Shown: positions 1 to 51,448 of the stretch, in pieces
Numbering within the stretch: position 1 is the stretch's first letter
How the letters are laid out: every line of letters starts with the position of its first letter
Virus genome (UHGV): UHGV-0134778
Strand: one strand, 5' to 3'
Length of the DNA: 64,000 nt
From: a virus
Notes under the pieces: model-generated
Database searches by the model: none
What the model saw: the letters and a program-made list of their open reading frames with translations, nothing else
What the model was told of the DNA's origin: nothing
Program-made: the position numbers and the translations under genes

Positions 1-3000
1 AGCATAGGGTGAGTCTGCAAACTTGTAGTGCAGAGCAACTTCAAAAGGATGTGTAGATGTTCCGTCTGCTGCAAGGACTGGCTTCCCGATCAGATCGCAC
101 TTAATAATCATCACGACACGTCTGTACCCATTAGCAACTGGAACGTCGAACGGATATCTCTCACCATTCATATTCGCATGCACGGCTGCGAAATTTATAT
201 ATGGGTCAACAGCGTTACCTAGAGTCTCAGGTCCCGGGATTATCTTGTACTTCTTGACCTGCCCCATAATATAGTCGCTACCGTAGGTTGCAGCCTCGAA
301 GCAAGAACCTGTATCAGGTAGTTCAGCAGGCCCCCAGAAATATGCGCCATAACAGTTATAAAACCACTTGTTAGGGTCGTAGTTGTTCTTAAAGGTCTGA
401 ACCTCGTTAGCCTGTTTCAACAAGAAAACCTGCGTATCTGTAAAGATTGCAGGATTCACCCTTGCCTGTCGATCAGCATATCCAGGTTGGTTAAACCACT
501 GATTGCAAGAATAGTCCCTCATATAGTCATAATCAGAGTATTTGTTGTTTGCATCCTCGTTCCAACACAAGTTCAGGTTGGTGCCGCCCATGCACACAAT
601 ATATTCTTCAACATATTTATCACTTCTGGTAGGAACACCTATGAACCATCTGTTAACAGGCTCATCCCAAGCGGTGCGCTCATCTTTAACGCAGATCGCA
701 ATCCAGTCATGTGTCCCTGTTTTCTTGCACACATCTCGCTTCATACCGTAGTAGAATTCTTTAGTATTTGGCTCAGGTGCGCTTATTAGGTAGCTCCACG
801 CCTGGTCCGCATAGGTTCCATTGGTACGAGGGTCATGATCAAAAGCATACATGATGATCCTTTCCCCGCCAAGATGTTCACCAAGAGTAACTTTGATGTT
901 CACATCCCCGTAACCGTTGCGAACAACATCCATATTATCAATAGAAATACCTCTAGGAGTGTAGGCAATTTTCAGTGAGTTATCCTCACTGGTGCCACCA
1001 AGGGTAATCCCTATATTGTTTGTTGTCCCGTCGGCATATCTTACTGTAGCTTCCCAGCGTATTCCGAAATATCCTGCATCATGGCTGACAATTTTCAGTG
1101 TACGAGCCCCAGAGTTAGGTTTTCCAGGATCAGGCCAAGGATCTGGATGTTCATGGACAGTCAACGATGTTCCGTTTTGCTCGTTGACCTGCAACATTTT
1201 ACCGCCTCTGCCGTTAGGGTTGAACTCCCACAAGGCTTGTGTTTTCACAACATTGTCATACGTAGTACGTCTCTGATCGTAGATCTCTTGAGTCACATCG
1301 TAGGTTACAGACCCGGCATCCATTCTATGGAGTCGTACCATATACGATGTATCGCCTTCTACAACAGGTTGAGCTGCGTTAAGCCCGAAGTATACAGTAT
1401 CGTTGACATGAAACTGTTTGTTTCTACCGACAGTATGCCACTTGCCGTTGGACGGATACGCAGGAACTATGGTGTTCCAGTTCAAAGTTCTTGTCGTATG
1501 GGTTCTGCCTGTGCCATGCTTGTCATGATAGGTTATTTTTACAGAGTACAGGCCACGTCTGTTGACATTTCTGTTATACTGGGTAACAACAACTTCGTTG
1601 GCCCCACCGTGGTTCCAGTTGGTGGAGAATTGGTAATTTGCATCTGTAACAACCGTACCTGCAGCATTTACCAGTTCAATCTTGTCAATAATGAACGTAG
1701 CTCCCTCTGGCTGAGGCTTCAATTTCATCTTGACTGTGTCACCAATGTAAATATTGCTAACGCTGCTAACACCGTTAACGTCAAAAATATCATCAACACC
1801 CCAACTATCTACTGGGACATTTTTATACCAATTCTCAGGTACCTCCGTGAACCCTTGGCTATTAAGCCTGCCGCCAAACAGGTTATTAGAGCCTGCAAAA
1901 CTTCCCCTTGGGATACCTGACCACCAAAGTTTACCATTAACAACAGTAAAGGTTCCTAAAAAACCTTCTCTGTGAATGCCTTGGAAATAAACACTCTCTG
2001 TCCAGCTAACTGGCAAACGTTGCTCAACATATTTAGCCGTAGCAACGGCCTGGTAATGAATAAAATCGGCACGGGGGTTATTGTTTGCAGATTGTGCGCC
2101 AATATCGTTGCACAGGTTTCGAGAGAAGCCACGATACTGCTTGGTGCCGTTGTTGAAGAAAATACCACTGGTGCCATAGCCACGAGCCATTATTACTTCA
2201 TGGGTGTAGGTGATATTTAATGGACGCCAGGTATCATCTCCCCAAACGTTTTGCCCGTAGAATACGTTAACAAGTTGTTGGTCATCAGGTCTGTGCATTC
2301 TTTGTGTTGCAACCACTGCCCCGTTCGGACCGCACATGAACCCTTTCCACTCCTCATCTGCAGGAATTCCTCTCAAATCGTCACGGGTAATCTGAGCAGG
2401 AGGCCAAACAAGGTCGTTTCTGCTGTTGTTCCTCAGAAAGTCGTATCCCGCAATCCAGAAACCTCTAGGACCACCGAAAATAACAGAGTTATCATGCACC
2501 TCACAGTTGATGCTTGGGTTTTTCCAAGGACCTGTTTCAGGATTTTCCGATGTTTCACCAATCTTTACAGGGGTTGCATGCTGGTTTTTATCCACATGCA
2601 AAGATCCGTAGGTGTTGTTACCAGATCCGTACAGGTTCAGTATGCCAGTGCCTTCTGCCTCTGCAATAACCCAGACAGTGTTGTTAATACCACCCATTAC
2701 CTCAACAAGGCGCTCTGGGTGTGTGTCGAGGTGCAACCCTTTAACAATCTGCTCAGGAAGAGGTGTCCACTCGTTTACGCAAACATCATTACCACCTGCC
2801 GCAGTGGATCCGATAAGACCTGCAGTGCAGCCGATGTAGAAAAACTGGTTATCAAAAGTCCGGATCACAAACGCACGGTCTGCTCTCCACACATGATCAA
2901 CATTCCAAGCTGTCTCGCTCGGGTAGTTTATAGGGCTACGATCCCCAGTGCGACACTCCCCGAACTTGTTATAACCCGTAATATTAAGCTGACCATTGTC

Positions 3001-3150
3001 AAAAAGTATAGCTAAGCTATTTACATAAGCTACTGTAGTGCTTGTACCGTCACTGTTGTCTATTGGGTATGACAGAACAGCAAGTTCCTTAACTCCACCC
3101 CTCTTATCGAGGAAATGACGACCAAGTTTTAGCAAAGGGATTGGAAGCAT
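1..3150 (-). CDS. tail fibre / tailspike protein, 3' end truncated by window edge
   Basis: Minus-strand ATG at 3148-3150 preceded by GGAGAA; hand translation begins MLPIPLLKLGRHF and stays open as far as checked (about 3000); plus-strand ORFs here look like antisense shadow. Confidence 0.45.
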   Translation of the reverse strand, partial: MLPIPLLKLGRHFLDKRGGVKELAVLSYPIDNSDGTSTTVAYVNSLAILFDNGQLNITGYNKFGECRTGDRSPINYPSETAWNVDHVWRADRAFVIRTFDNQFFYIGCTAGLIGSTAAGGNDVCVNEWTPLPEQIVKGLHLDTHPERLVEVMGGINNTVWVIAEAEGTGILNLYGSGNNTYGSLHVDKNQHATPVKIGETSENPETGPWKNPSINCEVHDNSVIFGGPRGFWIAGYDFLRNNSRNDLVWPPAQITRDDLRGIPADEEWKGFMCGPNGAVVATQRMHRPDDQQLVNVFYGQNVWGDDTWRPLNITYTHEVIMARGYGTSGIFFNNGTKQYRGFSRNLCNDIGAQSANNNPRADFIHYQAVATAKYVEQRLPVSWTESVYFQGIHREGFLGTFTVVNGKLWWSGIPRGSFAGSNNLFGGRLNSQGFTEVPENWYKNVPVDSWGVDDIFDVNGVSSVSNIYIGDTVKMKLKPQPEGATFIIDKIELVNAAGTVVTDANYQFSTNWNHGGANEVVVTQYNRNVNRRGLYSVKITYHDKHGTGRTHTTRTLNWNTIVPAYPSNGKWHTVGRNKQFHVNDTVYFGLNAAQPVVEGDTSYMVRLHRMDAGSVTYDVTQEIYDQRRTTYDNVVKTQALWEFNPNGRGGKMLQVNEQNGTSLTVHEHPDPWPDPGKPNSGARTLKIVSHDAGYFGIRWEATVRYADGTTNNIGITLGGTSEDNSLKIAYTPRGISIDNMDVVRNGYGDVNIKVTLGEHLGGERIIMYAFDHDPRTNGTYADQAWSYLISAPEPNTKEFYYGMKRDVCKKTGTHDWIAICVKDERTAWDEPVNRWFIGVPTRSDKYVEEYIVCMGGTNLNLCWNEDANNKYSDYDYMRDYSCNQWFNQPGYADRQARVNPAIFTDTQVFLLKQANEVQTFKNNYDPNKWFYNCYGAYFWGPAELPDTGSCFEAATYGSDYIMGQVKKYKIIPGPETLGNAVDPYINFAAVHANMNGERYPFDVPVANGYRRVVMIIKCDLIGKPVLAADGTSTHPFEVALHYKFADSPYA

Positions 3151-28136: not shown

Positions 28137-29048
28137 TTATTTTCCGTTAACTTTGTTGTAGTTTCCCTGCTCAGATGGGACTATGGTAGAAGGTCTTCCA
28201 TATTCCTGATAATACCAATCTGCTGCGGATTGGGTAACACCGTTTTCATCCGTCCACATCATAGATTTGTATGGCTGCCACTCTTCTGCGGCATTTGTGG
28301 AGGCAGTGTCTGCAAATGCCCCTGTGTCCCTCTTGTTACCTACGTTACTACCATTCTTACAGTCGTTGACAGCACCTTTTTGCTGGGTCTTGCCCACTTT
28401 CTTAGGGTTGCTGTATACAGTTGCATTAACAACCTTGTTCAAGTAGAATGTGCGGAACTCTGTAAGTTCTACATCAAACACCATCGCAGCACCTTCACCA
28501 ACAGACTTGTTGGCAGAAAGGCTGGTTATGATGTAGTTCTCAAGAAGTCTTTCCTCGGTAACCAAAGAAACCAACTGGCGCTTATTAATGATCTCAGTCA
28601 AAGCCTCCAGTGCAGCGCCTGGTCGCATAGATGCTGCAGGATTTTTAGAGTCAGTATTCCTGTCAATGTAGTTTTGCTCATAGATTATATGTGGTGATGT
28701 ATTTACCCTACCAGTAAAAGAAAATACACCATCTTTAATTACAGCGTGGTCTGACAGGGTAGATTTATCTTCCACCGCAAACCCGGTCTTATCAACAGAA
28801 TGTTTGAAAGAGTAGTTCTCAACCTGATCGAAGATAATGGCAAGATCGTTAGTAAAGTTTTTACCCTTCATCTCCGTATTGCGACCACCATAGTTAAGAC
28901 CACTGACAAACATAGTGTACTTTACATCGCTTTCAGTTTGCTGCTCTGCCTTTTCAGCCTTTGGAGATTTAACCTCTTGAGGCTTGTACAGGTCTTTTTC
29001 ATCAACTATATTGCTTGGCATAACCTCTCCAGGACACTCCGATACCAT
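28137..29048 (-). CDS. tail protein distal to tape measure (start may be internal Met near 29021)
   Basis: 303-aa ORF; GGAGAGG RBS precedes the internal MPSNIV start. Confidence 0.3.
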   Translation of the reverse strand: MVSECPGEVMPSNIVDEKDLYKPQEVKSPKAEKAEQQTESDVKYTMFVSGLNYGGRNTEMKGKNFTNDLAIIFDQVENYSFKHSVDKTGFAVEDKSTLSDHAVIKDGVFSFTGRVNTSPHIIYEQNYIDRNTDSKNPAASMRPGAALEALTEIINKRQLVSLVTEERLLENYIITSLSANKSVGEGAAMVFDVELTEFRTFYLNKVVNATVYSNPKKVGKTQQKGAVNDCKNGSNVGNKRDTGAFADTASTNAAEEWQPYKSMMWTDENGVTQSAADWYYQEYGRPSTIVPSEQGNYNKVNGK

Positions 29049-29084
29049 CTAGATATTGTATCATAAAATAGCCGTTTTTACAAC

Positions 29085-29114
29085 ACCGATAAAATAAAGG
29101 GGGCCGGAGCCCCC
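29085..29114 (-). terminator. rho-independent terminator
   Basis: GGGGGC-UCCG-GCCCCC hairpin plus UUUAUUUUAU after the tape measure gene. Confidence 0.55.
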
Positions 29115-29127
29115 TATGTGCCGTTTA

Positions 29128-31464
29128 TTACCAAAGATCTGTTGACATAAAGTTAATATCTTTGTTGTTCTCCCACTCAAGTTTTGCATCAATTATTTTG
29201 TTAAACTCGCCCTCATTTATTGAAATAGTGATTTTCCCATCACTGATCTCTAAAGGTAGCATTTCCATAGTTCTTAATTGAGAAGCAAAACCAGGGCCAC
29301 CTGGCAACGGAAGAGTACCGCCCGGTAAGGTGTCCAAAGGATCAACAAACCCGTTACCTCCAGATATAATATCTTTGCGAATCATATCGCTGATAGTATC
29401 CAGTTGCTGATTTCTTTCACTCAGCGGGTTGAAACGGTCATTAAATAACTCTCCGGCACTCAATATTGTGCCGATAATGCCCAGCTTGCCAAGTATGCCA
29501 ATTTTACCACCAGGTGTCTTGAGGCCACCTCCACCTTTTCCTGCCGCGCCGCCACCACCAGATCCTTCTGCAGTGGCTGCACCTGCTGCTCCAGCTGCAC
29601 CTCTTAGAGAACTAAGGAATTTAAAGGTTTTTACAAGCATGGATGCCATGACAAAACCTTTTGTCAGGGCGTTGACGACCAGCATGATGGCAGCAGCAAA
29701 CCCTGCCCATTTAGCATAGCTAAAGGTGTCATGAAGCTCTTCAGAATATTCCTTCGTCTTAGCTGTTATGAATCCCCATTTAATCCCCCATTCAAGGAAA
29801 AACATGCGGATCTTGACTATAGTGTTGTTCAGTTCACCAACTACCCAGTTAAGACCTCTCACAAACCCGCTAACAAAATCACCAGAGGCATCCCACACAA
29901 ATTGCAAAGTCTCACCAGTGCGGATCAGTGTATAATAGAACTCTGTTAGTTCGTCAGCCCAACGGGTGAACAGTTTCTGACGGGACAGTTCGATGAAGGT
30001 TTTCAGCCTGTTTTCTGCCAGCACGTTAGACTTCTGCATTCTCTCATAACCAGCTGCAGATGCCTCGTTCATGTACTTAGCCACATACTTCATGATCTTG
30101 GCTGTTTTAACCTCGCCTTTCTTCATCATGTCCATGAACTGATCCATGGAGAGCTCAGAAAGACCAAAAGCCTCTTTGGTGGCCTTGATAAAAGGTTCAT
30201 ATGCCCCAGGTAACGCTTCAGCAAGCTGTTGCTTAAGTTCTTCAGACATTACCTGTCCTTTACCAAGCATTTGCTGGATTGCCATAATACCGCGCTGGTA
30301 TTTTACCTCATCGGCACCATAAGCAGCAGCATACTGTGAGTATGCAGAGAATAGCTCATGGACCTCTTGGTTTGTCATCTGATTTTTGGCGTTCACCGCC
30401 ATCTGAGAATAACCCTGAAGACCAGATTTGAGATCAAAACCAAGACGCATAGCCTCCTGCTGGACAAACGCAACTTCACTGTTGGCTTTGTTTGGATCTC
30501 CAGTAACAGCAGTAAGAGCAGCACTTGCCCCCTCCATCATGTGACCGGATCTGTTAACCGCAGCAAATCCAGAAAAAGCTGTATACGCAGCTGTTGCATT
30601 AATAACAGATCTACGTAAGTCTCTCAGGGCATCGCCTAGTGTAAGCGTTTGGCTGGTGGCGCTTTTAAACCCAGACTGCAGAGCTGACAGGTGGGCGTTA
30701 AAGGTTGACTTTTTCATCTCTCCGCGAGCAAACCTGGACTCTAACTCTGAGTATCCTGGCAAGCTTCCACGGAATCCAGCCCCATACTTGGCAGAAAGTC
30801 TTATCGCAGAGTTGTAGAGGTGGGTTCTTCTTGCCTCACGATCCGACATAAGCCTATTATCCATACCAGCTTTACTGTCCCTTCTTAGCTGCCTATGGTA
30901 ACGGTTCATAGCCGCTGTCTGAGCTTTCACAAGATTAGGGTCGGAAGCCACACCACCCATGTTAGGGTTACCGGGGATATATTTGAAAGATTTGGCATTA
31001 GCCAAAACTCTTGCCTTAGGTGCCTTATACCCGCCGTAAGACACTGGTGCAGATTTGGCAGCCTTTTTGGCCTCTTTAGCTTGCTGCTGGTAGAACTTAC
31101 GCATCCTAGCCATTTCTGGATTTTTAGCGGTAAGATTACCCACAGCTTGTTTACGTCTCGCGTTCTCCCTACGTTCTATTGCAGCCCTTACTGCAGCCTC
31201 TTTCTTGGCTTGTGTTACGCTCTCCCTGTGCAGTTTAGCATTTGCCTGAGATTGCTGCCTGGCAACCCGCTGCATTGTTTGCTGGGTTTTAACAGCCACT
31301 GCCTGCCATCTACTCATTGGGTTGGCTGAGTTAAAATCCTCGCCCAGTTTCCTGAACTCCCTCCCAATACTGCGAATTTTCTCTACAGCTTTTTTGTAGG
31401 AGGAGTTCTCTATCTCAAAGCCAATCTTGTTGACTGTTGTGGCAACTATTTTGTTTGTAGCCAT
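29128..31464 (-). CDS. tail tape measure protein
   Basis: 778 aa; coiled-coil-rich with Gly-rich C-terminal segment; preceded by chaperone pair. Confidence 0.65.
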   Translation of the reverse strand: MATNKIVATTVNKIGFEIENSSYKKAVEKIRSIGREFRKLGEDFNSANPMSRWQAVAVKTQQTMQRVARQQSQANAKLHRESVTQAKKEAAVRAAIERRENARRKQAVGNLTAKNPEMARMRKFYQQQAKEAKKAAKSAPVSYGGYKAPKARVLANAKSFKYIPGNPNMGGVASDPNLVKAQTAAMNRYHRQLRRDSKAGMDNRLMSDREARRTHLYNSAIRLSAKYGAGFRGSLPGYSELESRFARGEMKKSTFNAHLSALQSGFKSATSQTLTLGDALRDLRRSVINATAAYTAFSGFAAVNRSGHMMEGASAALTAVTGDPNKANSEVAFVQQEAMRLGFDLKSGLQGYSQMAVNAKNQMTNQEVHELFSAYSQYAAAYGADEVKYQRGIMAIQQMLGKGQVMSEELKQQLAEALPGAYEPFIKATKEAFGLSELSMDQFMDMMKKGEVKTAKIMKYVAKYMNEASAAGYERMQKSNVLAENRLKTFIELSRQKLFTRWADELTEFYYTLIRTGETLQFVWDASGDFVSGFVRGLNWVVGELNNTIVKIRMFFLEWGIKWGFITAKTKEYSEELHDTFSYAKWAGFAAAIMLVVNALTKGFVMASMLVKTFKFLSSLRGAAGAAGAATAEGSGGGGAAGKGGGGLKTPGGKIGILGKLGIIGTILSAGELFNDRFNPLSERNQQLDTISDMIRKDIISGGNGFVDPLDTLPGGTLPLPGGPGFASQLRTMEMLPLEISDGKITISINEGEFNKIIDAKLEWENNKDINFMSTDLW

Positions 31465-38936: not shown

Positions 38937-39914
38937 TTATTTGTTAGATTCTGCACGTGCACGAGCAAGTGCTTTTGCAACGTTTTCAGCAAGAATTTCT
39001 TCTGCGGATTTTGCAATATCATCCACAACAGGTTCGCCATCATTACCATGTTCAGTGGTGGCAAACTCTTCTTTGGTTTTATGCACCTCTGCTTCCAGCT
39101 CTTCAATTTTGGCTTGAGCTTTCTCCAGCATAGCTACAATAGGTTCGTTAGCTTTTTCCAGCATGAAGTCAACCAGGGTTGCATGATCTTCTTCACCAAC
39201 AAAGCTTAAAGCTTGAGCTTTAGCCAGCATTTTAGCTTTTTCAACTTCAACCTGGGCCTTGATGATTTCTTCAGCTTTACTCTGGGTTGCTTTCAGCTCT
39301 TCTACTTGCTTCAGCAGATCCAGATACTCTTTAGTTTTGGTTACGTCCACCGGATTCTCCTCGGTATTTGCGGATTTTGCAACATCATCCACCTCGGTAG
39401 TTTTATCCACCTCAGTAGGTTCCTGTACCGCCTTGATCAGGTTCCCTTCTTTATCGAAGAGATCAGCGGTTACTTGTTCAAAAATCTGTTGTGTTTTTAA
39501 CAGACTGTACTGATCTACCACACTAAGCTGCTTGCCTTCTTTTGCAGCTTTATGAATGGTCACGTTATCACAACGCTCTTCCAGCCATGCAATGCAAGAC
39601 TCTGCGTCAGCTTGTGCCCATTCCCAATCAGGATGCTCTTTAGCCCAAGCTTCCTCTTCAATCTCAAAACCAAGCATGTGTGCAAGTGCTTTGGCATCAT
39701 CATACCACATATCGAAGAAACGACGCAGGTATTCTTCAAAACTCAGCTCCACAGTAACTTGGCGAAGTGCCTTAACAATATCGTCTGTTAACTGCTCAGG
39801 CTGAAGATCACTCTTCATCAAAAGAGATACAGGTCTGTTGTTAGCGCTATAGCCTTGCGCCTTATGGCACAGGGCAATCCCCTTCTCTTTAATAGTAATC
39901 GTTTTTTCAGACAT
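38937..39914 (-). CDS. scaffolding protein
   Basis: 325 aa, highly charged predicted coiled coil, between protease-like gene and capsid. Confidence 0.5.
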   Translation of the reverse strand: MSEKTITIKEKGIALCHKAQGYSANNRPVSLLMKSDLQPEQLTDDIVKALRQVTVELSFEEYLRRFFDMWYDDAKALAHMLGFEIEEEAWAKEHPDWEWAQADAESCIAWLEERCDNVTIHKAAKEGKQLSVVDQYSLLKTQQIFEQVTADLFDKEGNLIKAVQEPTEVDKTTEVDDVAKSANTEENPVDVTKTKEYLDLLKQVEELKATQSKAEEIIKAQVEVEKAKMLAKAQALSFVGEEDHATLVDFMLEKANEPIVAMLEKAQAKIEELEAEVHKTKEEFATTEHGNDGEPVVDDIAKSAEEILAENVAKALARARAESNK

Positions 39915-48519: not shown

Positions 48520-48745
48520 CACATAACTTTATCCGAACTCGCGCGGGAGGCTCTCAACCGACTCCTTCCGGCGCTGGCAAGCTTTCGTCGGTGGTCCACA
48601 TTAGTGCTCGGCCTTTGGCCTGCGCTATCGCTTCGCTCCCACACATGTTAACAGTCCTGCATGTATGCACTTCTGTTATTGTGTGCACTATGGAGGCCCG
48701 GCATCTCGCCCCCCCCGTAGGCGAGTGCCAATGAAGGGCCGACAC
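48520..48745. other. GC-rich structured island, candidate non-coding RNA or long 5' leader
   Basis: About 225 nt of high GC in an AT-rich genome with nested hairpins (e.g. GGCACUCGCC...GGCGAGAUGCC, GGCC-AAA-GGCC); overlapping ORFs have implausible composition. Confidence 0.3.
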
Positions 48746-48883
48746 TACCCATAATAAGTAATAAATTTAAAACATGGTACTTAGGATCTAGTATATTCTA
48801 CATAAGTTAAGTATATGTACTTTAGTACCATAAGTACTAGATCTTTTATTTTTATTATTTAGTTATTTTAGTTATATTCTTTA

Positions 48884-48967
48884 TGTGTCCGTATCACGGA
48901 CAGTTAGTGTCCGTATTACGGGCAGATGTGTCCGCGTGACGGACAGTAGTGTCCGTATCACGGACAG
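48884..48967. repeat. four tandem 19-bp palindromic repeats (GTGTCCGTATCACGGACAG) with 21-22 bp period
   Basis: Copies start at 48885, 48907, 48928, 48949; each has arms TGTCCGT/ACGGACA; AT-rich hairpin just upstream. Confidence 0.6.
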
Positions 48968-49041
48968 TTACTAACCTCTGTTCCAGAGTGAACATAAAAC
49001 ATACAAATCCTTATAGTACAGATGTTTAAGTTTTTACTGGT

Positions 49042-49392
49042 CTAACCAGTTGTTGACATTCGAATAACTTCTTCTGGTGGCAAAACTTTGGAAAATGTGC
49101 ATCTTTTACCTCTCCCTTGTGTGGATATTTCAACCACTCCTGCACATTCTAAAGTTTTAACGCACGCTGCTGCTTTTGTTTTCTTTATCCCAACATCTGC
49201 TGCAATTTTCCTTGTGCTTGGTGTGAAGCGTGAATTTTCTCCAAGCTTATACCAGTTGTGCAGGTAGCAGTATACGATCTTGTCATATAAGTCAAGAACA
49301 ACAACCTCCCCAGTTGTGTCATTCAAAACTTTTGACATAGACAGTATTTCAAGGGGGACTTTAAGATATAGCAGCTTATCCCCATCTTTCAT
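49042..49392 (-). CDS. winged-helix-like DNA-binding protein
   Basis: 116 aa; segment STRKIAADVGIKKTKAAACVKTLECAGVV resembles an HTH; gene ends 75 bp from the repeats. Confidence 0.35.
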   Translation of the reverse strand: MKDGDKLLYLKVPLEILSMSKVLNDTTGEVVVLDLYDKIVYCYLHNWYKLGENSRFTPSTRKIAADVGIKKTKAAACVKTLECAGVVEISTQGRGKRCTFSKVLPPEEVIRMSTTG

Positions 49393-49439
49393 ATCTCCTG
49401 ATTCTCCTTGTGTGGCAATTTTCTTTAAAATAGCAGGGA

Positions 49440-49994
49440 TTACTCCCCGCTGTCAATAGCAAGACTCATTGCAATACGGTATGCCTCTTCTAATGGTAAG
49501 AGTCTCCCCCACACATCCCAACCGACATCAAACTGCCTGCCAAACAACTGCTGTGTGGTTCCGTGAGCATGACCGAACAGTTGGACTGATCCGTGAGGCT
49601 TTCTGTTCCACTTTGCAAACTGGTAATGGCTCATACAGATCAAATTCTTGTTGTGGCGAAGCTCGTAATAATCTACAACCTCATGACCGAACTCTTTCAT
49701 AATTCTGACAGTCGTCCTTGTGTCATGGTTACCACGAACAAGAATAATATGTCCGTTCAACATATTTAGAACATCTGGAAGCAATTTGTTGATATTCTTA
49801 TCATTAGTGCACGCAATATCCCCCAAGTGAAACACAGTGTCTGCAGGTGACACAACAGAGTTCCACTTGGTGATGATTCCCGCATTCATACTGTCAAGAT
49901 TGTGATCATACTGAGATCTGTGTTTTTGACATGAGTCGAACTCCATTACCCGCTGGTGGAGAAAGTGTGTGTCGCTTGTTACAAAGTATTTCAT
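49440..49994 (-). CDS. calcineurin-like metallophosphoesterase (polynucleotide 2',3'-phosphatase candidate)
   Basis: ORF track gives 49440..50099, but GAGGAA RBS precedes the internal MKYF start; motifs SDTHF, HLGDI, RGNHD. Confidence 0.55.
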   Translation of the reverse strand: MKYFVTSDTHFLHQRVMEFDSCQKHRSQYDHNLDSMNAGIITKWNSVVSPADTVFHLGDIACTNDKNINKLLPDVLNMLNGHIILVRGNHDTRTTVRIMKEFGHEVVDYYELRHNKNLICMSHYQFAKWNRKPHGSVQLFGHAHGTTQQLFGRQFDVGWDVWGRLLPLEEAYRIAMSLAIDSGE

Positions 49995-50001
49995 ACATTC
50001 C

Positions 50002-50412
50002 TCATTTAAGTTTAATGCAGTTTTTAAGCTGGCGTTCCATACGATCCACAACCCTGTCTGGAACATCATGAATGCTTTTATTACCATGGCGGTTTTCAAC
50101 CACGATCACGGTATAACTATATCCATGACTGATCGCCATGTCAATATATTCTTGCACATATTTTTCTTTTGTAAACGTATTACTTACCACGATACGGTCG
50201 TAGCCCATACGCATCATATCTTCTACGTTATCTTTGCACCATTTTGCTGCAAGTGTTACTTTACTTGCATCCCAATTGTAATTGCCGTCATCGTCGTACC
50301 AGAACATATCGTTCTCAAAATGTGGATACAGACCTTCTAAAGATAGCGCATTTGCCAGTGTTGATTTGCCAGACCCTGGTAGACCACGCACGATATATAG
50401 CATTTTAGACAT
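50002..50412 (-). CDS. P-loop polynucleotide 5'-kinase-like protein
   Basis: ORF track gives 50002..50568, but GGAGAG RBS precedes the internal MSKMLYIVRGLPGSGKST start; Walker A GLPGSGKST. Confidence 0.55.
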   Translation of the reverse strand: MSKMLYIVRGLPGSGKSTLANALSLEGLYPHFENDMFWYDDDGNYNWDASKVTLAAKWCKDNVEDMMRMGYDRIVVSNTFTKEKYVQEYIDMAISHGYSYTVIVVENRHGNKSIHDVPDRVVDRMERQLKNCIKLK

Positions 50413-50440
50413 AGTAACTCTCCGTTTTAATTTTAATGAT

Positions 50441-50469
50441 AGTATACCTAACTGTTTTGTTAATTTCAA
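50441..50469 (-). promoter_or_regulatory. sigma70-like promoter TTGAAA-N17-TATACT
   Basis: Read on minus strand upstream of the kinase gene in the divergent intergenic region. Confidence 0.45.
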
Positions 50470-50512
50470 GTGTTGACACCAAGTTATTTGTGTGGCAGGA
50501 TAAAGGGACAAA

Positions 50513-51448
50513 ATGACAAATGAGGAATGTATAATGAAGTATTTTAATGCAGACGACCTAGTTGACAAAGGTCTTGTAACCAGCAGATATTACCCGGATC
50601 TTGGGTTAAAGATCTATAAATATGCCAGAAAAGTATTCTACAACAATTTATGGCATTTGTCTCCTCGTTTGCTGGAGTGCCGAGGCATTGTTGTCGGTAA
50701 TGAAGGAAATGTTGTGGCATGGCCCTTCACAAAAGTGTTTAACTTGGGAGAAAATTCCACCAACCTGCCTGACAATAAACTTGTGACGGCGGTAGAGAAA
50801 AAGAACGGATTCCTTGGTGTGGTATCATCTCATAAAGGTGAACTATTGTTCTCAACAACCGGGTCTCTTGATTCTCCATATTGTAACCTTGCAAAGGAAA
50901 CAATCCAGGAGCAATGTGGTAATTTAGATCTTATCAAGAGGGTTATGGGCCATGAAAACATGACATTCATGTTTGAAATTTGTCACCCTTCAGATCCGCA
51001 TATTGTTCAGGAAGATCATGGCGCATATTTGATAGGTTGCAGATATAATGATTCTGGAATAATGCTACCAGAAGCAGCTTTAGATGGGATTGCCAAATAC
51101 CTTGGTGCAAAACGTCCTCACACTGTGCGTGAAATTCCGTTCAGCTATGCAAAAGAATTAGCTGCAGAAACAAGAGGTGAAGGGTATATGATTCGTAAGC
51201 CTTACTACCCTTATGATCTGCAGCTGAAGATCAAGTCTCCATACTATTTGGCACGGAAGGCCGTAATGAGGGGTAAAGCTTGGAAGATTTGGGATGATGA
51301 TATCTTTAAACGTGTTGACGAAGAGTTTTATGGCATGGTAAACTTCATTCGTAGCAATTACACAGAAGATGTGTGGAACTGCCTCCTGGAGCAAGAACGT
51401 CGTGAGATACTTGACTGCTATTTCCACAACGAGGACTATATGCAATGA
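50513..51448 (+). CDS. rnlA: RNA ligase, T4 Rnl1-like
   Basis: Stretch LLECRGIVV...PFTKVFNLGEN...VEKKNGFLGVVS parallels T4 Rnl1 around its KEDG adenylylation motif; alternative start at 50534. Confidence 0.65.
   Translation: MTNEECIMKYFNADDLVDKGLVTSRYYPDLGLKIYKYARKVFYNNLWHLSPRLLECRGIVVGNEGNVVAWPFTKVFNLGENSTNLPDNKLVTAVEKKNGFLGVVSSHKGELLFSTTGSLDSPYCNLAKETIQEQCGNLDLIKRVMGHENMTFMFEICHPSDPHIVQEDHGAYLIGCRYNDSGIMLPEAALDGIAKYLGAKRPHTVREIPFSYAKELAAETRGEGYMIRKPYYPYDLQLKIKSPYYLARKAVMRGKAWKIWDDDIFKRVDEEFYGMVNFIRSNYTEDVWNCLLEQERREILDCYFHNEDYMQ

Follow-up and report, generated by a model that had tools for sequence, protein, structure and literature searches.

A palindromic iteron-like array, a small winged-helix protein, and an AT-rich block form a candidate replication origin in rV5-like phages

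Four phased palindromes lying between an AT-rich stretch and a gene for a small winged-helix protein may mark a replication origin or a set of operator sites, and the locus raises the question of which of the two it is. It is found in what we call the window, the whole 64,000-nucleotide stretch of the virus genome UHGV-0134778 that we analyzed, and an earlier note on this DNA had proposed either function. The window comes from a Vequintavirus (rV5-like E. coli myovirus, ~137 kb), and rV5-like phages are in wide use for biocontrol and therapy. The origin of rV5 was sought by skew analysis in 2013 and not found, the only inflections being tied to changes in transcription direction (Kropinski et al., PMC3606486), and we found no later description of an rV5-like origin or of its iterons in the literature. 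The comparative, compositional, and published genetic evidence assembled here favors the reading of the locus as a candidate origin.

Over 47500-50600, the window shares 99.4% identity with Escherichia phage vB_EcoM-ECP26 and 90-99% with about 120 records of the genus Vequintavirus. For analyses of a whole genome, we used the assembled ECP26 sequence (136,993 bp, 99.4% identical to the window) as the reference. The array lies in a noncoding stretch of 661 bp between the genes for the 116-aa winged-helix protein and a 192-aa protein; the flanking genes are on the minus strand, and the array separates two co-directional gene groups. The features of the locus are, in the order of transcription:

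50568..50002, minus strand: kinase/AAA protein
50099..49440, minus strand: metallophosphoesterase
49427..49456, minus strand: sigma-70-like promoter (TTGACA, 18-nt spacer, TG-TATTTT), just upstream of the 116-aa gene
49392..49042, minus strand: 116-aa winged-helix protein, orthologue of rV5 gp075 and candidate origin-binding protein (from Pfam, PHROG, and hhalign)
48971..49041, minus strand: spacer between stop codon and array, 71 bp, varying freely among genus members
48885..48970, no strand: four iteron-like palindromes TGTCCG-N5-CGGACA (from repeat alignment, motif search, and conservation)
48744..48883, no strand: AT-rich block of 140 bp, 79% AT, candidate DNA-unwinding element
48507..48745, no strand: conserved GC-rich noncoding block, ~240 bp and ~60% GC, with the ribosome-binding site of the next gene after it
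48380..47802, minus strand: 192-aa protein with no assigned function, followed by more small genes and a tRNA cluster

The GC skew, which the earlier note had suggested as a check, turns near position 50,000. This is the same place as the switch in gene orientation, with transcription diverging, and the turn is therefore not independent evidence and adds nothing to the case for an origin.

The array itself was described correctly in its main outline. Its four copies (48885-48906, 48907-48928, 48928-48949, and 48949-48970) start 22, 21, and 21 bp apart, about two helical turns and in agreement with the 21-22 bp given before, and each is an inverted repeat with a conserved core of 6-bp arms around a 5-bp center (cores at 48886-48902, 48908-48924, 48929-48945, and 48950-48966). 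The claim that a 19-bp sequence occurs four times holds for the palindromes and not for the exact 19-mer, which is present in copies 1 and 4 only; over 22 nt, the identity is 82% for copy 2 and 77% for copy 3, and copy 3 has a TGCCCG arm in every relative. A search for the 17-bp core TGTCCGTATCACGGACA with up to three mismatches found it within the 64-kb window at the array only. The eight matches, representing the four palindromic sites counted on both strands, compare with an expectation of 0.10, and none of the 100 shuffled sequences reached eight. The genome-wide motif search called for in the earlier note gave the same picture: with up to two mismatches in the 12 specified bases, the array is the sole locus in the 137-kb ECP26 genome apart from one two-mismatch match, which is within chance expectation.

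We assessed conservation in an alignment of six genus members, including the most divergent available (88% identical in the 116-aa protein). Across these, the positions of the four sites are invariant and their arms conserved, and the rare changes within the sites affect the central bases or those adjoining them. Most of the intergenic substitutions are in the spacer (alignment columns 29-100), which drifts while the array and the AT-rich block are nearly invariant. The 116-aa ORF ends 75 bp from the array, as was noted earlier, and we found no terminator-like site between the two.

The array occupies the 3' untranslated region of the 116-aa gene, where no other terminator is present, and judged from its sequence, each copy could form a stem of 6-7 bp. 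Such hairpins in a read-through transcript might protect the 3' end, pause or terminate transcription, or serve in processing. The pattern of changes speaks against a role in RNA, however. Neither strand is favored, with copy 2 having a G-U wobble and copy 3 a C-A mismatch on the minus strand; in copy 4 of SYGMH1, a stem position is broken with no compensating change; and no T-run follows the array. A function of the transcript would also leave unexplained the phenotype that the array shares with the protein gene and the recurrence of the motif behind the winged-helix domains of initiators, both described below, and we regard it as extremely unlikely.

The 116-aa protein consists of a single winged-helix domain (Pfam DUF6945, 1.7e-6; HTH_36, 1.9e-5) and stops right after the wing, with no second domain. 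It belongs to PHROG 12838, labeled "replication initiation protein," and has weak matches to the N termini of the initiator PHROGs 8102, 428, and 270. Phage_rep_O of Pfam gave no match at E≤1, and the comparison with lambda O by hhalign a probability of 0.2%. The nearest solved structure, 4RO3, is an uncharacterized protein of 120 aa. Among 50,697 phage records, the family was found in the genus Vequintavirus only, and the neighbor of the gene is likewise confined to one genus. A word-indexed search for homologues returned near-identical proteins only, and an exhaustive HMMER search of 1.84 billion representatives just weak matches to other winged-helix proteins. With an alignment of only five near-identical sequences, the AlphaFold model reached a pLDDT of 40, too low for use. 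The profile matches suggest a resemblance to the N-terminal origin-binding domain of phage initiators, a resemblance common to many transcription factors.

Two labels compete for the protein, "replication initiation protein" and the "putative transcriptional regulator" of most GenBank records. The regulator label would make the locus an operator array, to which the 116-aa protein binds cooperatively at all four sites as a transcription factor. It would repress or activate transcription that enters the downstream gene cluster (from the 192-aa gene on, towards the tRNA genes) and originates either in the operon of the protein itself or at a phage-specific promoter within the AT-rich block. The Pfam matches agree with this in being to generic winged-helix families and, weakly, to LexA, CodY, and TrmB; palindromic sites suit dimeric regulators, and the position between two co-directional gene groups with no terminator would suit them as well. 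Against it, the protein has no effector or oligomerization domain, and the motif has no other copy in the 137-kb genome and hence no regulon. A scan confined to the sigma-70 type found no promoter in or beside the array on the transcribed strand of 48744-49041, which weighs against operators as far as promoters of that type are concerned. The strongest promoter-like match in 48200-49500 is the one just upstream of the 116-aa gene (10/12 with an extended -10), where the RefSeq record of rV5 has promoter P76 annotated.

The AT-rich stretch beside the array, mentioned in the earlier note, proved to be real and extreme. By nearest-neighbor energies, it is the least stable duplex of 60, 100, and 140 bp in the window and, for 100 and 140 bp, also in the ECP26 genome as a whole. 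Over 140 bp, its stability is -145.8 kcal/mol versus a genomic mean of -186.9 (SD 7.1), about 5.8 SD below, and the next-lowest value is -157.7 kcal/mol. Such a cis-element, present at a single place in the genome and directly beside its most easily melted DNA, looks like an origin and not like a regulon.

The block contains two GATC sites (48785 and 48840), where 0.25 are expected (P=0.024), and GATC is also enriched in the AT-rich blocks of related phages discussed below, with 4 sites versus 0.12 expected in SalP219 (P<0.0001) and 4 versus 0.27 in a Phapecoctavirus (P=0.0001). Since the boundaries of the blocks were chosen after the sequences had been seen, we count this enrichment as supportive only. 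A similar enrichment is known from oriC and P1 oriR. Both GATC sites of the window lie inside the inverted repeat that had been described as a hairpin with a 10-bp stem (GGATCTAGTA at 48784-48793 and TACTAGATCT at 48835-48844). The description does not stand: the stem has 9 perfect base pairs and one mismatch around a loop of 41 nt, and a perfect inverted repeat at least as long was found in 48 of 300 shuffles of the block. Being no better than chance, the repeat has no weight in the argument for an origin.

On the far side is the conserved GC-rich block. Relatives differ in it by indels of 1, 2, and 18 nt, which speaks against coding. Folding z-scores of -0.8 and -2.1 were unconvincing for a structured RNA; Rfam at the gathering threshold found only tRNAs in the window, and a permissive scan of 48350-49100 gave only matches far below threshold and no family for the block. 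We also considered the decayed C terminus of an initiator and rejected it, as tblastn with the array-bearing initiators described below matched the array alone. Inspection by eye showed no convincing DnaA box at the locus, only one 8/9 match to TTWTNCACA near 48510-48520; partial matches of this kind are frequent, and one is within chance expectation.

The genetic evidence comes from HIDEN-SEQ, a saturating transposon mutagenesis of the Vequintavirus Bas54 (phage MaxBurger) (bioRxiv 10.1101/2025.11.20.689424). We took the values per gene from its Extended Data tables, with the read count as a proxy of fitness (10.1101/2025.11.20.689424). In MaxBurger, the array and the AT-rich block are at ~132.65-132.87 kb. 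For the genes around the array, TA sites hit, published class, and mean normalized counts per site are:

bas54_0209, bas54_0210, and bas54_0211, upstream: 56/60, 33/36, and 26/27; Non-essential; 192, 171, and 140
bas54_0212, orthologue of the 116-aa gene: 17/20; Intermediate; 13.6
bas54_0213, small annotated ORF overlapping copies 1-3 and half of copy 4: 4/7; Intermediate; 18.1
bas54_0214 and bas54_0215, small ORFs in the GC-rich block: 5/5 and 4/6; NA and Intermediate; 135 and 78
bas54_0216, the 192-aa gene: 31/34; Non-essential; 140

The 116-aa gene and the array thus have in common a nonlethal, ~10-fold depletion of insertions, while their neighbors are neutral. One quantitative phenotype for the gene and the array argues for a joint function. 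The neutral insertions in the upstream phosphoesterase gene fit a promoter of its own for the 116-aa gene, and those tolerated in the GC-rich block (means of 135 and 78) indicate that what the array and the gene do probably does not require this block. Viable insertions were recovered both in the gene (17/20) and in the ORF over the array (4/7), and the module is therefore not an essential, sole origin. From the sequence, 5 of the 7 TA sites of bas54_0213 are inside the array, and with four of the seven hit, at least two viable insertions must lie within the array itself.

A repressor with its operators would also give matched phenotypes, and two downstream genes could be named in favor of such a pair: bas54_0218 also has a low count (12.1) and bas54_0220 is essential (10.1101/2025.11.20.689424). 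The former shows that low counts occur outside the gene and the array as well. Against the operator interpretation, insertions in the intervening downstream ORFs are neutral, which makes it unlikely that transcription entering from the array region is important.

A stretch of ~2 kb of intergenic DNA separating bas54_0134 from bas54_0135 (92.8-95.3 kb in MaxBurger) received no insertions at all (10.1101/2025.11.20.689424). In ECP26, this region corresponds to ~120.2-122.7 kb, outside the window; it has repeat families of its own and holds the second- and fourth-ranked windows of low stability. It must be taken as a serious candidate for an essential cis-element, which may be the main origin or a packaging site.

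Packaging has to be considered for the array as well, which could be a pac or cosB-like site with the 116-aa protein as a recognition subunit resembling the small terminase. Lambda offers a parallel, its cosB being made up of repeated sites to which the winged-helix N terminus of gpNu1 binds. The large terminase gene is ~6 kb from the array, and the GenBank records of the genus start at arbitrary positions, which fits permuted genomes. Recognition of the DNA for packaging would be essential, however, and the gene and the ORF over the array both tolerate insertions. Moreover, the family links of the protein are to replication initiators and not to terminases; its gene shares an early-type operon with those for polynucleotide kinase and phosphoesterase and is served by a promoter of the sigma-70 type; and an extreme unwinding element is foreign to pac sites. 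We give a packaging role for the array a probability close to negligible.

To see where else the motif occurs, we scanned IMG/VR for two adjacent copies and obtained 17 contigs (among them L007, L037, L085, L086, L118, and L136-L145). A pattern for a single site was too loose for viral contigs, chance single matches dominating among the matches listed, and it was the two-copy pattern that was informative. The 17 contigs are 7-64 kb long with a GC content of 49-70%, and their nucleotide similarity to the window is limited to the array. Their TGTCCG-N5-CGGACA sites form tandem arrays of three to seven, with a spacing that is mostly 21-23 bp and ranges from 20 to 25. Every one of the 17 has an ORF running across the array, which starts directly after an N-terminal winged-helix domain (at residues 82-205) and is translated as a linker of repeated peptides. 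These ORFs represent six protein lineages, and the proteins are 225-400 aa long with a C-terminal part beyond the array. When we tested four representatives against PHROGs, three matched initiator families, including the "replication initiation O-like" families 345, 391, and 678, and the one from L037 had no initiator match.

The array-bearing winged-helix domains matched the small proteins of Vequintavirinae in hhalign with a probability of 96.9% (E=1.5e-10). BLASTP of the 116-aa protein against a motif-bearing initiator was not significant, so the common motif may be convergent. We found no named cultured relatives of the array-bearing initiators, the only matches being to cyanophage proteins at ~36% identity over the winged-helix domain. 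For an operator, these contigs are difficult: arrays of the same motif are found inside the coding sequences of initiators in six unrelated lineages, where an operator is implausible. As a general observation, profiles of winged-helix domains cross-match rather easily.

Using the neighboring RNA ligase gene as an anchor, we obtained loci from a Seunavirus, a Mydovirus, a Henunavirus, and a Phapecoctavirus. Analogous modules were found in the first three, which represent sister genera within the Vequintavirinae (Seunavirus SalP219, Mydovirus K18PH07C1, and Henunavirus pEa_SNUABM_55). They combine an ORF for a winged-helix protein of 107-124 aa with two to three tandem, genus-specific repeats at a spacing of 23-24 bp and an AT-rich block with GATC sites. 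The repeats are ATTCC-N6-GGAAT palindromes in the Salmonella and Klebsiella phages and a 20-bp direct repeat in the Erwinia phage. The small proteins are 21-28% identical to the 116-aa protein. Their matches are to the same initiator PHROGs, over the N-terminal ~100 residues of these, with "replication initiation O-like" and "DnaD-like helicase loader" among the labels; the match of the Erwinia phage protein to phrog_8102 reaches 5e-33. In SalP219, the gene for the small winged-helix protein abuts the palindromes. Its whole genome (146,994 bp) has no duplex less stable than the AT-rich block, whether 60, 100, or 140 bp are considered, and contains the perfect palindrome ATTCC-N6-GGAAT only in the array.

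The sister modules differ from the window in that the winged-helix gene is divergent from the repeats and, unlike that of the window, does not read towards them, the long GC-rich block is absent, and the repeat sequences are different. They are not syntenic with the window, either: the conserved neighbor has a weak homologue elsewhere in the Vequintavirus genome, for which reason we regard the modules as analogous and not syntenic.

These modules bear on two of the alternatives. The repeats occupy a divergent promoter region and reach the start of the winged-helix gene, a placement that would suit autoregulation, and the two roles are compatible, as initiators commonly autoregulate; operator and origin are not mutually exclusive. 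An operator array as such would, however, leave unexplained the genome-wide stability minimum next to the repeats in two genera, and taking the evidence together, we consider it an unlikely account of the locus. The other alternative is that the module is the relic of a captured lambda-like origin that no longer fires and is either decaying or kept to exclude or compete with phages using the same iterons. This would be consistent with an initiator truncated to its DNA-binding domain and iterons stranded outside the ORF, with the restriction of the protein and its neighbor to one genus, and with the dispensability of the module for plaque formation. A decaying relic should hardly remain almost invariant beside a drifting spacer, however, nor should its disruption cost about 10-fold in the abundance of insertions. 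The sister genera, moreover, retain analogous modules with their own motifs and, again, an extreme AT-rich block, and a relic appears very unlikely.

We think it probable, if by no means certain, that the array, the 116-aa protein, and the AT-rich block constitute an iteron origin of the lambda type that is important but not essential to the phage and whose initiator is pared to its DNA-binding domain. In such an origin, the 116-aa winged-helix protein would be made from its own sigma-70-type promoter, and its dimers would bind the four dyad-symmetric 17-bp sites. As the spacing of 21-22 bp places the sites on one face of the helix, the bound dimers could form a wrapped complex like the "O-some," and the stress of the wrapping would melt the adjoining 140-bp AT-rich block. 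Read-through transcription from the 116-aa gene may aid the melting, which is conceivable as no terminator lies between the gene and the block. The phage's own helicase-primase and polymerase would then begin replication at the block. Binding of the array by the protein, melting of the block, and the start of replication there are what we infer from the combined evidence. The module would raise fitness and yet be dispensable, with another origin or recombination-dependent replication presumably substituting for it; by analogy with other large virulent phages, rV5-like phages probably have alternative ways to start replication.

More tentatively, rV5-like phages and their sister genera may be seen as having a "minimal split initiator," in which a free winged-helix protein of ~110 aa, lacking any part that recruits a helicase, fires a lambda-type origin for a phage-encoded replisome, the protein and its iterons co-vary by genus, and the iteron code is shared with six uncultured high-GC lineages whose O-like initiators are still of full length. 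This wider generalization is possible, and we hold it to be rather doubtful. Were it true, it would document the capture and paring down of a lambdoid origin module by large virulent phages.

For rV5-like phages, the analysis provides a candidate origin made up of four sites, the 116-aa protein, and a 140-bp unwinding element, and ties this module to published transposon phenotypes and to modules of related genera. It also gives annotators grounds to choose between "transcriptional regulator" and "replication initiation protein." If the origin reading is true, a lambda-style origin can function when only the DNA-binding domain of its initiator is left, and the protein and its sites are a small orthogonal protein/DNA pair for engineering.

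Among known systems, the iteron plasmid origins (RK2 oriV with TrfA, pPS10 with RepA, and P1 oriR with RepA) combine contiguous, phased repeats of ~22 bp, an AT-rich unwinding element bearing GATC, and a GC-rich stretch. The window has the same arrangement of phased ~22-bp repeats beside an AT-rich GATC block, followed by GC-rich DNA. The plasmid iterons are, however, direct repeats bound by Rep monomers with two winged-helix domains, while those of the window are palindromes accompanied by a protein with a single such domain. The uncultured initiators with in-gene arrays are closer in the sites themselves, having the same half-sites, the same 5-bp center, and the array directly after the winged-helix domain, and they have PHROG initiator families and a winged-helix profile match in common with the window. 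They differ in having the array inside an ORF of 225-400 aa and in retaining a C-terminal part.

The closest parallel in organization is the origin of lambda. The RefSeq record of lambda annotates, within gene O at 39034-39118, four "ori iterons" of 18 bp; they are of the type TCCCTC-N5-GAGGGA, are spaced by 20, 24, and 23 bp from codon 117 onwards, and are followed by DNA of 68% AT. Like lambda, the window has four tandem 6-N5-6 palindromes at intervals of about two helical turns, which begin just behind the coding sequence of a winged-helix domain (at codon 117 in lambda and at the equivalent of codon 143 in the window), with AT-rich DNA directly after the iterons and transcription through the region. 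The differences are also clear. The iterons of lambda are within the gene and those of the window ~75 bp past the stop codon; lambda O has a C-terminal domain that recruits the helicase loader, whereas the 116-aa protein has none and no remnant of one is found downstream; and the AT-rich stretch is ~40 bp in lambda and ~140 bp in the window. The phage of the window is a virulent myovirus of 137 kb that has its own helicase-primase and polymerase, and its module, unlike the lambda origin, is dispensable for plaque formation, as the Bas54 insertions demonstrate. Since the iterons lie outside the gene and the protein has neither detectable similarity to lambda O nor a C-terminal recruiting domain, we do not describe the module as a member of the lambda O family but as a variant that would work like the lambda origin.

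On the far side of the AT-rich block that adjoins the array of palindromes lies a GC-rich block that is kept across the genus:

48507-48745, GC-rich block of ~240 bp, ~60% GC against 43% in the genome

Judged by the 1-, 2- and 18-nt indels between relatives, the block is non-coding. A search of Rfam gave no family match for it and folding no significant structure, and its counterpart in phage MaxBurger (Bas54) tolerates transposon insertions (10.1101/2025.11.20.689424). Elsewhere in the genome, outside the window, we located a further non-coding region at the meeting point of two convergent gene blocks:

ECP26 (MK883717) ~120,231-122,722, equal to ~28,331-30,822 of locus L128, non-coding region of ~2.5 kb
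MaxBurger 92,785-95,298, the same region

The HIDEN-SEQ preprint reports zero transposon insertions within the MaxBurger interval (10.1101/2025.11.20.689424). The region contains an array of the repeat CTGTTTACGC with a 15-bp period, dispersed extra copies of that repeat and several inverted repeats, and the second- and fourth-ranked low-stability windows of the ECP26 genome both fall inside it. We consider it a candidate essential cis-element, whether the main origin, a packaging site or a set of RNA genes.

Two features of the tRNA cluster and its surroundings were recorded:

45936-46034, - strand, tRNA-like gene of 99 nt within the tRNA cluster
~46600-46938, - strand, gene for a ~112-aa protein, orthologue of bas54_0220, immediately upstream of the cluster

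The tRNA-like gene was left unassigned by ARAGORN, with a four-base "atcc" anticodon call, scored weakly against Rfam (35.5 bits) and is annotated as tRNA-OTHER or tRNA-Lys in relatives; its anticodon loop may be unusual, or the gene may be interrupted by an intron. The orthologue of the protein gene is essential in Bas54, where 1 of 20 TA sites carried insertions (10.1101/2025.11.20.689424), and is among the essential genes that lack annotation in this group of phages. According to the Bas54 annotation table, the large terminase gene of that phage is in two pieces (683-1108 and 1992-3113), split by a putative homing endonuclease gene; the counterpart position is approximately 42,000-44,500 of the window. 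Among the database records, 18 GenBank entries carry the name "Campylobacter phage" (MG0656xx) and give Campylobacter jejuni as host. They share ~96% identity with 47500-50600 of this E. coli Vequintavirus, and their host labels look doubtful, through contamination or mis-assignment.

Arrays within genes were found in uncultured phages and repeat-bearing modules in the sister genera:

L007, L037, L046, L076, L085, L086, L118 and L136-L145, array-bearing initiator loci on IMG/VR contigs
L131 1290-1500, L130 2351-2560, L132 3002-3110 and L129 860-1020, sister-genus loci

The uncultured phage initiators form six lineages in which the gene's own iteron array is translated as a repeated peptide linker, as in the 380-aa ORF of L086 with its repeated CPETGQGVRKPDSG. 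The TGTCCG-N5-CGGACA site is common to all six, though the proteins share little similarity. The sister genera have tandem repeats of their own, adjoining a small initiator-type winged-helix gene and a block that is rich in AT and enriched in GATC. The repeat is ATTCC-N6-GGAAT with a spacing of 24 bp in the phages of Salmonella and Klebsiella; the Erwinia phage has a 20-bp direct repeat with a spacing of 23 bp. The Phapecoctavirus locus carries AGATCT and clustered (A)GTAC motifs, resembling those at 48784-48844 of the window.
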